This document shows, in pieces, positions 21,207-24,517 of a DNA stretch of 51,129 nucleotides (its first letter is position 1; each line of letters begins with the position of its first letter). Both the position numbers and the translations under genes were made by a program. A model generated the notes under the pieces. That model did no database searches, had not been told where the DNA came from, and worked only from the letters and a program-made list of their open reading frames with translations. Location: positions 1-51,129 of the forward strand of contig CAMAKJ010000001.1 of assembly GCA_945836055.1 (NCBI GenBank), written 5' to 3'. Source of the stretch: an uncultured Clostridia bacterium. Its GTDB lineage: Bacteria > Bacillota > Clostridia > Oscillospirales > Oscillospiraceae.

Positions 21207-21282
21207 GCGCCAGTGGCTCAATGGATAGAGCATCGGATTCCGGTTCCGAGGGTTGGGGGTTCGAGTCCCTTCTGGCGTACCA
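21207..21282 (+). tRNA. tRNA-Arg(CCG)
   Basis: Acceptor gcgccag/ctggcgt plus ACCA, anticodon arm tcgga-ttCCGgt-tccga, T-loop GGTTCGAGTCC. Confidence 0.96.
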
Positions 21283-21283
21283 T

Positions 21284-21328
21284 AACGAGTGTTCTTATAG
21301 GATTTGATATCCTGTGAGAACACTCGTT
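21284..21328. terminator. Long hairpin at the islet left end
   Basis: aacgagtgttcttataggat-ttgat-atcctgtgagaacactcgtt. Confidence 0.8.
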
Positions 21329-21331
21329 GTT

Positions 21332-21640
21332 TTATTGCTCATTTTGGGCCGGTTCGTAGGTGACATATACACCTCTGCGGGTATTGACCGTCACATCCGG
21401 GACAGGCAGGGAATCGGTATCCGGGATGAACAGGGCACCGATGCAGTTGTAGTGGATGGTCAGTTTCTGAATCCATTCCCAGTCGATCTTCTCGGCCTGA
21501 TAGACCTCAATGTGATCGATCAGCTCATTCACCATCCTGGGTGTCAGCTTCTTCGCCCGTGTGTATTTTCGCACAGTGGAAAGAAACATATCCGTGGAAA
21601 CCGCTTCGCTGCTGAGCTTGTCCAGCTCTTTGCGGAGCCC
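21332..21640 (-). pseudogene. C-terminal remnant (DUF4368-like) of a TnpX-type large serine recombinase
   Basis: GLRKELDKL...DMFLSTVRKYTRAKKLTPRMVNELIDHIEVYQAEK...QKLTIHYNCIG; no catalytic domain. Confidence 0.8.
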
Positions 21641-21803
21641 GGTGACAGGCTTTTGGGCAGAGAAAACGTCGTCGATGCAAGCAACTCACTCACACCGACG
21701 GCTATTTGAAACCTCAGGACATTCTGTGAAATTGGCAAATGGGGTATTTGTAATCAGCGTCAACTGTGGATCGCTGTGAATGTGGAAAATACTCATATTT
21801 TAC

Positions 21804-21850
21804 TTGACAAACAATTTAGAATGATTATAATATAATTAAAATAATTCTAA
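21804..21850 (+). promoter_or_regulatory. Sigma-A promoter overlapped by two Per boxes
   Basis: TTGACA(21804)-16 nt-TATAAT(21826); TTAGAATGATTATAA at 21816-21830 and TTAAAATAATTCTAA at 21836-21850 versus consensus TTATAATnATTATAA. Confidence 0.85.
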
Positions 21851-21873
21851 AAACGAATGGGAGGGATGCTTCC

Positions 21874-22269
21874 ATGACAAAATACGAAAGAGCAATTTAT
21901 AATATCGTACGAATGTCCCGTGAGCATCTGACTGTTCGCCAGATTTTTGAAAGGCTGAAAATGGACCATCCGAAGGTGGTCCTGGCGACCGTGTATAACA
22001 ACCTCAATAAAATGTGGGAATCCGGTCTGATCCGGAAGGTTTCCGTGGAAGGAATGCCGGACCGGTACGATATTCTCCAGAAGCACGATCACCTGGTTTG
22101 TAAGCGCTGTGGAAAGATACTGGATGTTTCCTTTGAGGACTTGACCGCGCCTCTGCGCAGCCAGCTCGGGCAGGACTTTTTGTTCTACGATCTGAAGGTG
22201 TACTACCTGTGCCCGGAATGCGGGGAGAAGGAAAAAACATCGGAGGAAGCACCCGGTCAATCAATATGA
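21874..22269 (+). CDS. perR: Fur-family repressor, PerR type
   Basis: HLT, ATVYNNL, DRYD, HDHLVCKRC, KILD (Asp in the PerR D104-equivalent position), CPEC. Confidence 0.8.
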   Translation: MTKYERAIYNIVRMSREHLTVRQIFERLKMDHPKVVLATVYNNLNKMWESGLIRKVSVEGMPDRYDILQKHDHLVCKRCGKILDVSFEDLTAPLRSQLGQDFLFYDLKVYYLCPECGEKEKTSEEAPGQSI

Positions 22270-22286
22270 AATAGGAGGAAAATTGT

Positions 22287-23024
22287 ATGTTAACAGGAAA
22301 AACGGCAGTTGTAACCGGCGGAACCAGAGGAATCGGCTTCGCCATTGCGAAGAAGTTTCTGGAAAACGGCGCCAATGTAGCCATTGCCGGGTCCCGGCAG
22401 GAGTCTGTGGATAAAGCCCTGGCGAAGCTGCCGGAGTACGCGGGTCGGGTTATGGGCATCTGGCCGGACATTTGCTCTCCTGAGGAGGTAGCGGCAGCCT
22501 TTGCTTCCGTTAAGGAGAAGTTTGGCAGCCTGGATATCCTGGCCAACAATGCGGGCATTTCTTCCAGAACCAGCCTGTATGACTACACTATTGAGGAATT
22601 CTCCAAGATCATGGATCTGAATGTGAAGGCTGTGTTTGTCTGCACCCAGGCCGCGGCCAGGATCATGAAGGCGCAGGGCGGCGGCGTCATCGTCAATACC
22701 AGTTCCATGGTCGGTGAGTACGGCCAGCCCTCTGGCTGCGGCTATCCCGCCTCCAAGTACGCGGTGAACGGCCTTACCCGGTCTCTTGCCAGAGAACTGG
22801 CCAAGGACAACATCCGTGTCAACGCCGTGGCTCCCGGTGTCACCAGAACCGACATGGTGGCGGCTCTGCCCCAGGAGCTAGTGGACCGGATTTCCGCCGG
22901 AATTCCCCTTGGCCGGGTAGGCGAGCCTCTGGACATCGCCAACGCGTACCTGTATCTGTCCAGTGATCTGGCAAGCTATGTGACCGGCGTTACCCTCCGG
23001 GTAGACGGTGCGGCCATGACCTGA
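22287..23024 (+). CDS. SDR oxidoreductase, probable bile-acid 3alpha-hydroxysteroid dehydrogenase (BaiA-like)
   Basis: TGGTRGIG, NNAG, catalytic S and YPASK. SDR family is certain; specificity inferred from recalled similarity to clostridial 3alpha-HSDHs (GQPSGCGYPASK, DMVAALP, VDGAA). Confidence 0.75.
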   Translation: MLTGKTAVVTGGTRGIGFAIAKKFLENGANVAIAGSRQESVDKALAKLPEYAGRVMGIWPDICSPEEVAAAFASVKEKFGSLDILANNAGISSRTSLYDYTIEEFSKIMDLNVKAVFVCTQAAARIMKAQGGGVIVNTSSMVGEYGQPSGCGYPASKYAVNGLTRSLARELAKDNIRVNAVAPGVTRTDMVAALPQELVDRISAGIPLGRVGEPLDIANAYLYLSSDLASYVTGVTLRVDGAAMT

Positions 23025-23040
23025 TAAGGGGGCGCAGAAT

Positions 23041-23652
23041 ATGGACAAGAAAGCAATGTACAACCTGAGCTACGGCCTGTTTGTGCTGACCGCCCGCCAG
23101 GGAGATAAGGACAACGGCTGTATCATCAACACCGCGGGGCAGGTGACCTCTACCCCCAACCGGATTAGCATCACGGTGAATAAGGATAACTTTACCCATG
23201 ATATGATCCGGGAGACCGGCAGATTCAACATTTCCATTCTGAGCGAAAAAGCGGATTTTTCCCTGTTCCGGCACTTTGGCTTCCAGTCCGGCAGGACGGT
23301 TGACAAATTCGTGGACTATTCCGCCTGTGAACGCAGCGCCAACGGCCTGTATTATATCACGGAGGGAACCAACTCCTATATCAGTGCCAGGGTGGAGCAG
23401 ACCATTGACTTGGGAACCCACACCATGTTTATCGCCGCCGTGGAGGATATGGAGGTCCTCTCCCCGGAGCCTTCCGCGACCTACGCCTATTATCAGTCCT
23501 CCATCAAGCCGAAGCCTGAGAAGAAGGCCGGAAAGACGGTCTGGCGCTGCACCGTGTGCGGCTATGTCTATGAAGGCGAGGAGCTGCCGGCGGACTTTGT
23601 CTGTCCGCTGTGCAAGCACCCGGCTTCGGATTTCGAAAAGGTCAGCGGCTGA
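23041..23652 (+). CDS. Flavin reductase-rubredoxin fusion (Hrb, high-molecular-weight rubredoxin type)
   Basis: LSYGLFVLT...DNGCIINT, FGFQSGR, GTHTMFI, then WRCTVCGYVY...DFVCPLC. Confidence 0.9.
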   Translation: MDKKAMYNLSYGLFVLTARQGDKDNGCIINTAGQVTSTPNRISITVNKDNFTHDMIRETGRFNISILSEKADFSLFRHFGFQSGRTVDKFVDYSACERSANGLYYITEGTNSYISARVEQTIDLGTHTMFIAAVEDMEVLSPEPSATYAYYQSSIKPKPEKKAGKTVWRCTVCGYVYEGEELPADFVCPLCKHPASDFEKVSG

Positions 23653-23663
23653 CCCGGTTCTGC

Positions 23664-23704
23664 AAAAAATCTGCCTCCTGGAATTTCCGGGAGGCGAATT
23701 TTTT
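23664..23704. terminator. Bidirectional terminator between hrb and the thioredoxin relic
   Basis: aaaaaat-ctgcctcctgga-att-tccgggaggc-gaatttttt. Confidence 0.75.
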
Positions 23705-23705
23705 G

Positions 23706-23855
23706 TTACAGCATAGCCAGAATGGCACTCTTGGGTCTGGCGCCTACGGCCTGGGCGACCACTTGGCCGTCCTGCATCACCACCAAGGTGGGGATGCTTA
23801 TGATCCGGAACTGACTGGCCAGCTCCGGCTCCTTGCCCACAATGGGGCTGAGCAA
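23706..23855 (-). pseudogene. Thioredoxin remnant (absent from the ORF track)
   Basis: Minus strand reads LLSPIVGKEPELASQFRIISIPTLVVMQDGQVVAQAVGARPKSAILAML*: SIPT cis-Pro loop and G-ARPK tail of TrxA, with WCGPC and the N-terminus missing. Confidence 0.8.
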
Positions 23856-23865
23856 GCAGTCTCAC

Positions 23866-24072
23866 AGCCAGCGGCTGATCGATACTTTCGTCAATCGTAT
23901 TTATCTCTACGATGACAAGCTGATCATCACCTTCAACCACAAGGATGGCGCCCAAACCATCACGCTGGGTGACATAGAAACCGCTCTTGCTGAACAGGAA
24001 AACGGTTCGGATTTGGTTGGCTCCGCTGTACCAAAAAATGGGAAACACCGCATGATGTTTCCTATTTTTTGA
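23866..24072 (+). pseudogene. C-terminal remnant of a second serine recombinase reading across the att site
   Basis: SQRLIDTFVNRIYLYDDKLIITFNHKDG...GSDLVGSAVP; the VP codons are the GTACCA repeat. Confidence 0.75.
24033..24070 (+). terminator. Probable original tRNA terminator displaced by the islet
   Basis: aaaaatgggaaaca-ccgcatga-tgtttcctatttttt immediately after GTACCA. Confidence 0.65.
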
Positions 24073-24082
24073 TACTCCAGGT

Positions 24083-24150
24083 GGGACTCGAAAGGGCGGC
24101 CTTGCCGAAGGCAAGGTAACAAAGTGTCCACCGGACACTTTGTTGGCCCG
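24083..24150. repeat. Small branched palindromic element beginning with an anti-T-arm sequence
   Basis: GGGACTCGAA is the reverse complement of tRNA 21260-21269; hairpins at 24100-24116 and 24118-24144 are enclosed by gggc/gccc. Confidence 0.55.
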
Positions 24151-24248
24151 TAGGAGCACGCCCCATGCTTTATGGACGGGATTTCAAGGACGGCCTGAGC
24201 GAAGACGTGAACAATCCTTCCCTGCAGCCCCAATTCCTGTTTTGGGTG

Positions 24249-24278: not shown

Positions 24279-24293
24279 AACCCAACATAACGA

Positions 24294-24517
24294 GAAAAGC
24301 TGAGAAGAGAAGAGTACGCTTTCTTTCCCGTTCAGAGAGCCCCGGAAGGTGCGAGGGGGTACGGCGAGGGGGGCGGAACATGGCCTCGGAGCTGAACCGT
24401 CGATATTCAGGCGGTTCCGGGTACGCCCGTTACCGCGCCACGAGGCAGCGTCTGCTGCGAAACAAGGTGGTACCGCGTCAATTCTGTCGCCCTTGGGTTG
24501 CCCAGGGGCGATTTTTC
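24294..24517 (+). promoter_or_regulatory. Met-specific T-box riboswitch
   Basis: AGAGA and GGTGnGA stem I motifs, specifier ATG at 24380-24382, T-box AAACAAGGTGGTACCGCG at 24460-24477, terminator at 24487-24517. Confidence 0.93.

Follow-up and report, generated by a model that had tools for sequence, protein, structure and literature searches.

Why should a PerR-like regulator share what appears to be one operon with an SDR that resembles the bile-acid 3alpha-HSDHs of gut bacteria and with a flavin reductase-rubredoxin? The question is raised by a locus in the genome of an uncultured Clostridia bacterium (Oscillospiraceae), analysed here within a single stretch of 51,129 nucleotides (the window; contig CAMAKJ010000001.1, forward strand). 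A preliminary description of this DNA had proposed that oxidation of bile-acid hydroxyl groups could supply reductant to an oxygen- and peroxide-detoxifying chain. Its account of the layout was accurate: three genes with gaps of 17 and 16 nt lie between one promoter and one terminator, and there are indeed two Per boxes at the promoter, at 21816-21830 with one mismatch and at 21836-21850 with two. The features of the unit and its flanks are as follows.

21207..21282, plus strand: tRNA-Arg(CCG), a likely integration site, just upstream of the operon
21332..21589, minus strand: DUF4368 recombinase-associated remnant (domain match), left edge of the shared cassette (21586)
21804..21831, plus strand: sigma-A-type promoter, TTGACA-16-TATAAT, consensus score 12/12
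21816..21830, unstranded: operator 1, a Per-box-like 7-1-7 inverted repeat over the spacer and -10; the top Per-box match of the genome, kept in orthologous loci
21836..21850, unstranded: operator 2, 20 bp downstream of operator 1, over the predicted start site; conserved in orthologous loci
21874..22269, plus strand: short Fur-family PerR-like repressor (predicted), 131 aa; Pfam FUR, best PDB match B. subtilis PerR 2FE3, metal ligands conserved
22287..23024, plus strand: classical SDR of the BaiA / M. gnavus 3alpha-HSDH-like family, 245 aa; Pfam adh_short, placed by sequence, tree and fold
23041..23652, plus strand: flavin reductase-rubredoxin, Hrb-like, 203 aa; Pfam Flavin_Reduct plus rubredoxin-like, CxxC at 170-173 and 188-191
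23662..23704, unstranded: intrinsic terminator, stem 23672-23696, A-tract before and T-tract after
23709..23840, minus strand: C-terminal remnant of a thioredoxin gene, convergent; the whole gene is present in locus L003
23849..24036, plus strand: C-terminal remnant of a serine recombinase, corresponding to the end of the one in L001; here the shared cassette has its right edge

A ribosome site of the GGAG/GGGG type precedes each of the three open reading frames. The terminator stem (23672-23696) has a folding energy of -27.5 kcal/mol (z -5.8; 0/200 shuffles as good) and is probably bidirectional, since A- and T-tracts flank it on either side. No strong terminator was found between the three genes, the one weak 7-bp match lying within the regulator gene. 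The stretch is also contained in contigs from four RNA runs, from pig gut and bovine metagenomes. Those of three studies start at 21858-21876; one contig covers all three genes (21865-23997) at a depth of 61 against 2.4 upstream, and in one run the depth drops from 40 to 4 past the terminator. Against this, one contig reads through the promoter and two continue beyond the terminator. The contig edges thus fit the predicted transcription unit in part and give a weak hint in its favour, contigs being unable to show a transcript.

The hallmarks of PerR that had been ascribed to the regulator are present: ATVYNNL, H18, D66, H71, H73, D84 and two CxxC motifs. The five putative metal ligands align to 2FE3 and are invariant, or nearly so, among orthologues; we take them to be the equivalents of B. 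subtilis PerR H37, D85, H91, H93 and D104, in the numbering that we assume for that protein. C76, C79, C113 and C116 form the four-Cys structural zinc site. The recognition helix has Asn and not Arg in ATVYNNL, and Per-box operators lie over the regulator's own promoter; the Asn is presumably N61 of PerR, and we assume that the residue rules linking such features to PerR apply here. The protein misses the cut-offs of all the curated PerR models (best NF052545, 68 bits vs 180) and, aligned with B. subtilis PerR, begins some 19 residues further in, for which reasons we call it a short subtype. To judge from these features it works like PerR, as a predicted repressor.

We scanned the 1.73-Mb genome with what we take to be the B. 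subtilis Per-box consensus. The site at 21816 is the only one with a single mismatch, and there are four with two mismatches, including 21836 and one upstream of a regulator paralogue on contig C173, which carries the same double operator. From the window locus and C173, which are thus not independent instances of it, we derived a refined operator, TTAGAAT-N-ATTCTAA. With up to two mismatches it precedes the regulator by no more than 160 nt in 26/27 loci from two genome searches, and in 24 of 25 once the two defining loci are removed. The genome-wide scan and this conservation rule out a chance match in AT-rich DNA. Rubrerythrin, Hrb or AhpC is encoded within 1.5 kb in 16 of the 27 regulator loci, some as Hrb-Rbr fusions, and other loci have a hydrogenase-rubredoxin fusion, a PTPS-like gene or a chemoreceptor. 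Together these comparisons are good evidence for a peroxide-defence regulator with predicted operators.

What, then, is the SDR? Its best PDB match by sequence is BaiA2 (223 bits, the next 195), which is also its best Foldseek match, by a small margin over FabG folds; the model (pLDDT 91) has a TM score of 0.92 to 4IS3, and FabG structures score alike. The catalytic residues N112, S140, Y153 and K157 (N-S-Y-K) sit in a classical SDR fold, and the family-invariant G150, Y153-P154 and T188-D189-M190 are all present. The preliminary description had set the enzyme apart from FabG, and phylogeny and profile scores uphold this by placing it with the BaiA/M. gnavus family. It misses the FabG equivalogs (NF004198, 247.6 vs 296; TIGR01830, 228.9 vs 297.75) and lacks the FabG motif N-x-G-Q-x-N-Y-A-A-x-K, so annotation as FabG was rejected. 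It marginally passes the subfamily model NF009466 (223.3 vs 222), as do P0379 and P0196, the latter from a thioredoxin-linked lineage of the family; outgroup rows L042 and L044 pass one FabG equivalog cut-off. A tree of 48 rows separates the family, with BaiA, from the FabG-scoring outgroups with 100/100 support for 39 rows and groups the window SDR with P0379 at 96/92; in this tree the long branches of BaiA and the outgroup meet. The best tree has the window clade nested between two assayed enzymes, provided that P0379 is Rumgna_02133 (see below). A basal placement is not rejected by the AU test (p 0.237), so the clade is not firmly bracketed by tested enzymes, and the Coriobacteriia rows shift position between two trees. 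An atlas search returned generic SDR clusters only, one of them auto-named 'Bile acid 7-dehydroxylase 1/3'.

Within the family the closer likeness is to the M. gnavus type. Identity between the window SDR and P0379 is 67%. A Mediterraneibacter gnavus protein belongs to the near-identical cluster of P0379, and we take P0379 to be the 3alpha-HSDH Rumgna_02133, the cluster member having no locus tag. The enzyme had been said to match the M. gnavus/BaiA clade motif for motif. All five quoted motifs do occur in P0379, but none occurs in BaiA2 and the match is therefore limited to the M. gnavus type. Residues 139-157 and 183-195 are nearly identical to those of that type; the window clade departs from P0379 at five positions, E144, R201, S203, G205 and M244, which include substrate-loop residues. 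Rumgna_02133 converts LCA to 3-oxoLCA, as reported in part of a preprint (bioRxiv 10.1101/2021.01.08.425913). L113, the closest relative of the M. gnavus enzyme among the loci fetched, differs from the window SDR in having no redox-defence neighbour.

The BaiA1 and BaiA2 enzymes of C. scindens (4IS2/4IS3) share YPxSK and TDM with the window SDR and form its sister group in the tree. Orthology with BaiA was rejected: the identity to the protein named BaiA2 is 49%, the cofactor loop is G-S-R-Q-E-S and not G-E-T-Q-E-E, and the neighbours are Fur and Hrb, with no bai genes nearby. BaiA is described as preferring CoA esters and NAD+, the latter via Glu42, and BaiA2 with Glu42 changed to Ala made better use of NADP+ (passages of PMC12065433). 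The G35-S36-R37 loop of the window SDR, together with Ser40 at the position of BaiA2 Glu42, predicts a preference for NADP(H), unlike the NAD(H) of BaiA; P0379 has the same G-S-R. According to part of a review, 3alpha-HSDHs generally use NAD(H) (PMC7996314). Taken together, the comparisons indicate a classical member of the 3alpha-HSDH family that is likely to have kept 3alpha-HSDH activity, as predicted from its sequence.

The third protein has the Hrb-like architecture of an N-terminal Flavin_Reduct domain and a C-terminal rubredoxin with two CxxC motifs. Hrb-Rbr fusions (L228, L230) and an FprA-Hrb fusion encoded in the same genome as the window (C112) suggest that it may carry out the Hrb-type, NAD(P)H-dependent reduction of a di-iron partner. 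Moorella thermoacetica Hrb, compared here by its description, likewise joins an FMN reductase to rubredoxin and is an NADPH-dependent donor to the flavodiiron protein FprA (part of PMC12288474); here, unlike in M. thermoacetica, its partner is an SDR, and rubrerythrin often takes the place of FprA. On one point the preliminary description needs correcting: no di-iron acceptor is encoded in this copy of the operon, rubrerythrin being present in 7/25 of the close loci. Rubrerythrins are encoded elsewhere in the same genome (C7, C12), as are a reverse rubrerythrin, accompanied by another Fur (C62), and the FprA-Hrb fusion; the operator is absent from the stand-alone rubrerythrin genes (C7, C12) and from that encoding FprA-Hrb. 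C173 and C197, which share an overlap of 126 nt at 98%, likely make up a second operon, comprising the regulator paralogue, the double operator, a PTPS-like gene and a [FeFe]-hydrogenase-rubredoxin-rubrerythrin fusion.

Is the linkage of these genes more than an accident of one contig? A synteny check of SDR-centred loci, for which most but not all matches were fetched and five duplicates dropped before counting, found the perR-SDR-hrb trio conserved in many gut taxa, which removes two of the objections that the preliminary description had raised against itself. The close set consists of 25 loci at 75% SDR identity or above, four of them near-identical copies and the kin among them not independent. 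Hrb lies within 1.5 kb downstream of the SDR in 18 of these; of the seven others, two end within 100 nt and five, with full flanks, stand alone. Fur is present in 14/25, and none of 39 outgroup loci has such redox neighbours. The gene orders Fur-SDR-Hrb, Fur-Rbr-SDR-Hrb, Fur-SDR-Hrb-Rbr and SDR-Hrb-Rbr are distributed over Oscillospiraceae, Lachnospiraceae and one spirochaete, and the SDR-Hrb pair is headed by two different Fur subtypes.

Among the more distant members of the family, 113 of 132 loci have no queried redox neighbour. The other 19 have Hrb in three (L122, L027, L028, of SDR lineages separate from the window clade), thioredoxin in 12 and a doubtful neighbour in four; the thioredoxin-linked loci include PerR-Rbr-Dfx-SDR-Trx-rhodanese and SDR-Trx-TrxR clusters, and the FprA matches beside L185 and L197 are convergent and were not counted as operonic. 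Redox neighbours were found in neither the three BaiA loci nor 30 further loci of the Eggerthellaceae type. On a quick tree, adjacency to Hrb requires at least five changes and adjacency to thioredoxin at least seven, gains being indistinguishable from losses. A class-wide genome sample was nearly empty (6/399). PerR cassettes are thus variable and take up the SDR as an option, while most members of its family have no such company: it occurs at just 3/27 regulator loci, of which the present one and another, a centre picked for its SDR, are not independent, and few of its distant relatives are linked to redox genes.

The unit also bears marks of movement. Positions 21586-24036 are 99% identical in L002, L205, L209 and L211-L213, with similarity ending at those edges. 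In L001 the shared part is 21262-24100, and an intact serine recombinase lies beside it. The operon has recombinase-type remnants on its flanks and the tRNA-Arg(CCG) gene just upstream. In the sole same-genus genome searched (G057, 99% complete), neither the SDR nor the regulator had a match at the thresholds used. From these sequence comparisons the unit is evidently mobile cargo, transferred recently among gut bacteria.

The sequence thus supports the predicted gene identities, the operon layout, the operators, the family placement of the SDR and the conservation of linkage. Beyond this, we favour, at rather less than even confidence, a PerR-repressed operon in which oxidation of bile-acid 3-OH groups by the SDR would feed NAD(P)H to Hrb and on to rubrerythrin or a flavodiiron protein. 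The repressor would be bound to the two boxes and leave on encountering peroxide. The SDR would then oxidise the 3alpha-OH of bile acids to yield 3-oxo bile acids, preferring NADP(H), and electrons would pass from NAD(P)H to the FMN of Hrb, to rubredoxin and to rubrerythrin or FprA, reducing H2O2 or O2; for this copy the acceptors would be encoded elsewhere in the genome. At neutral pH an alcohol is oxidised by NAD(P)+ only against the energy gradient, and Hrb, by draining the reduced cofactor, would pull the reaction. A shift of aerobic P. hiranonis cells to bile-acid oxidation has been reported (part of PMC12065433). Against the favoured reading, bile acids would be a small pool that yields two electrons per molecule.

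It is unlikely, though it deserves weight, that the genes answer a shared stress with no electrons passing between them, the SDR lowering bile-acid toxicity by way of 3-oxo or iso forms. Detoxification is the standard proposal for HSDHs (part of PMC7996314), and co-regulation with redox defence would follow from the oxidative and disulfide stress that bile acids impose at the same sites: in C. difficile, DOC and cholate provoke a disulfide stress that needs thioredoxin systems (part of PMC10880999), and it is to thioredoxin that a second SDR lineage is tied in the 12 loci described above. Such a division of labour sits less well with the most constant partner of the clade being the NAD(P)H-consuming Hrb (18/25) and not the regulator (14/25), or with an operator that accompanies peroxide-defence genes; nor was a bile salt hydrolase found in the 84%-complete assembly. 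That the SDR does feed NAD(P)H to Hrb, but from another alcohol such as a polyol, a sugar or a non-bile steroid, seems rather unlikely. The specificity of SDRs is poorly predicted at 67% identity, the clade-specific changes lie near the substrate loop (R201/S203/G205, E144, M244), and the position of the clade is not fixed, as the AU test and the shifting Coriobacteriia rows illustrate; the near identity to the M. gnavus type at 139-157 and 183-195 and the fact that the carriers are gut bacteria count against this reading.

We consider it improbable that the SDR works as a reductase, clearing reactive carbonyls or 3-oxo steroids that arise from oxidative stress and competing with Hrb for NADPH. 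In favour of that role, reductases typically have a loop of the NADP(H) type. R. gnavus cells, moreover, reduce 3-oxo-DCA to DCA (bioRxiv 10.64898/2026.08.11.743107). Yet the enzyme would be spending reductant when it is scarce, and carbonyl-detoxifying relatives are absent among its top PDB matches. Equally improbable is a passenger, captured once beside hrb on a mobile cassette and carried without a functional link. A cassette that is 99% identical across contexts and bounded by recombinase remnants would suit a passenger, as would a regulator that is usually without the SDR and the five close homologues that stand alone with full flanks; but SDR and Hrb have stayed together, at 75-100% SDR identity, despite rearrangements with Rbr and a change of regulator, and Hrb or thioredoxin neighbours recur in other branches (at least five and at least seven tree changes). 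The bile-acid-fed chain remains the reading that we prefer.

How much of this operon is new? In C. acetobutylicum, a PerR-controlled GapN supplies reductant. Clostridial PerR regulons include rbr3AB, dfx, rd, nror and fprA of C. acetobutylicum and rbr-perR-sor-CD0828 of C. difficile (parts of PMC3828012 and PMC11980386), and like the unit described here they place a PerR-type repressor over an NAD(P)H-fed chain to rubrerythrin, SOR or flavodiiron proteins. They differ from it in that here the donor is of the Hrb type, the regulator is short, the operator is TTAGAAT-N-ATTCTAA and an SDR of the 3alpha-HSDH family is built in. The parts are therefore known, as are clostridial PerR operons with an electron donor; the combination with the SDR is a real, conserved and mobile operon. 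The preliminary description knew of no such module. As far as the operon goes this agrees with our search, in which no such operon was found in the literature covered, subscription journals and bioRxiv supplements falling outside its scope; the general idea, by contrast, was already in print, part of a review having proposed that HSDHs supply hydrides for O2 detoxification, as speculation without a genetic example in the passage concerned (PMC7996314). The same part of that review calls the role of many gut bile-acid HSDHs unclear and O2 detoxification one unproven possibility, and part of another source has HSDH genes usually scattered and not clustered (PMC12345280).

The question of what HSDHs are for thereby gains a regulator, an operator, an enzyme and an acceptor chain, and becomes testable with four purified proteins. 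In its widest form the proposal is a possibility that we hold only tentatively: a peroxide-inducible module that is mobile and has come together in gut bacteria on more than one occasion, in which bile acids would serve as an electron reserve for the removal of O2 and H2O2, so that mucosal or inflammatory oxygen would give rise to immunomodulatory 3-oxo bile acids, with a second branch of the family feeding the thioredoxin system likewise. Because 3-oxo and iso bile acids inhibit TH17 differentiation (part of bioRxiv 10.1101/2021.01.08.425913), gut oxygen would, if this is true, control a host-active metabolite by means of a horizontally moving cassette.

The family of the window protein, an SDR, contains a second, thioredoxin-linked lineage that stands at 57-58% to the window protein and in which one 90% cluster alone has 3131 members. 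Its genes lie in clusters of the types PerR-Rbr-Dfx-SDR-Trx-rhodanese (Rbr, rubrerythrin; Trx, thioredoxin), SDR-Trx-TrxR or SDR-Trx-Bcp-like, and YaaA adjoins the SDR once. The further SDR in the window's own genome (assembly G000, contigs C) belongs to this lineage; no full-length FabG was found in that assembly at the TIGR01830 cut-off. L denotes homologous loci fetched from other genomes.

G000 C88:2-535, second SDR-family gene, at 56% identity, cut off by the contig end
G000 C29:1167-1508, FabG-like gene, C-terminal half only
L168:21-3469 and L172:1264-4585, second-lineage SDR clusters (also L103, L169, L170, L173, L095, L187, L094, L193, L199)

Around the mobile cassette, a repeat-like stretch (window 24060-24240) with several hairpins and a tRNA-3'-end-like sequence on the minus strand separates the cassette from a T-box leader. 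L082:823-1056 comes from a different genome within the same bacterial family; there the cassette directly follows an apparent tRNA-Arg, without the recombinase remnants.

24293-24497, T-box leader of a methionyl-tRNA synthetase-like gene

The window-type regulator also precedes other genes, among them natural Hrb-rubrerythrin fusions immediately behind it and, with the operator, a CZB-domain chemotaxis protein (L218 by Pfam check; L229 and L226 by resemblance to L218). Under a PerR-like operator of the window type, a conserved PTPS/QueD-like protein of 187 aa is found repeatedly.

L228:291-1493 and L230:1131-2300, Hrb-rubrerythrin fusion proteins
L218:1969-3372, L229:68-1498 and L226:2756-3370, methyl-accepting chemotaxis protein with CZB domain
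L014:5393-5953, PTPS/QueD-like protein under PerR-like operator (also L206, L207, L224, L235, L237, L243)
G000 C173:2210-3214 and C197:344-2724, likely operon of a regulator paralogue (also L221, L223, L235)

This paralogue carries the same double operator as the window operon and is the first gene of a likely operon. A PTPS/QueD-like gene follows it, as does a fusion of [FeFe]-hydrogenase, rubredoxin and rubrerythrin, and this layout suggests peroxide removal driven by H2.
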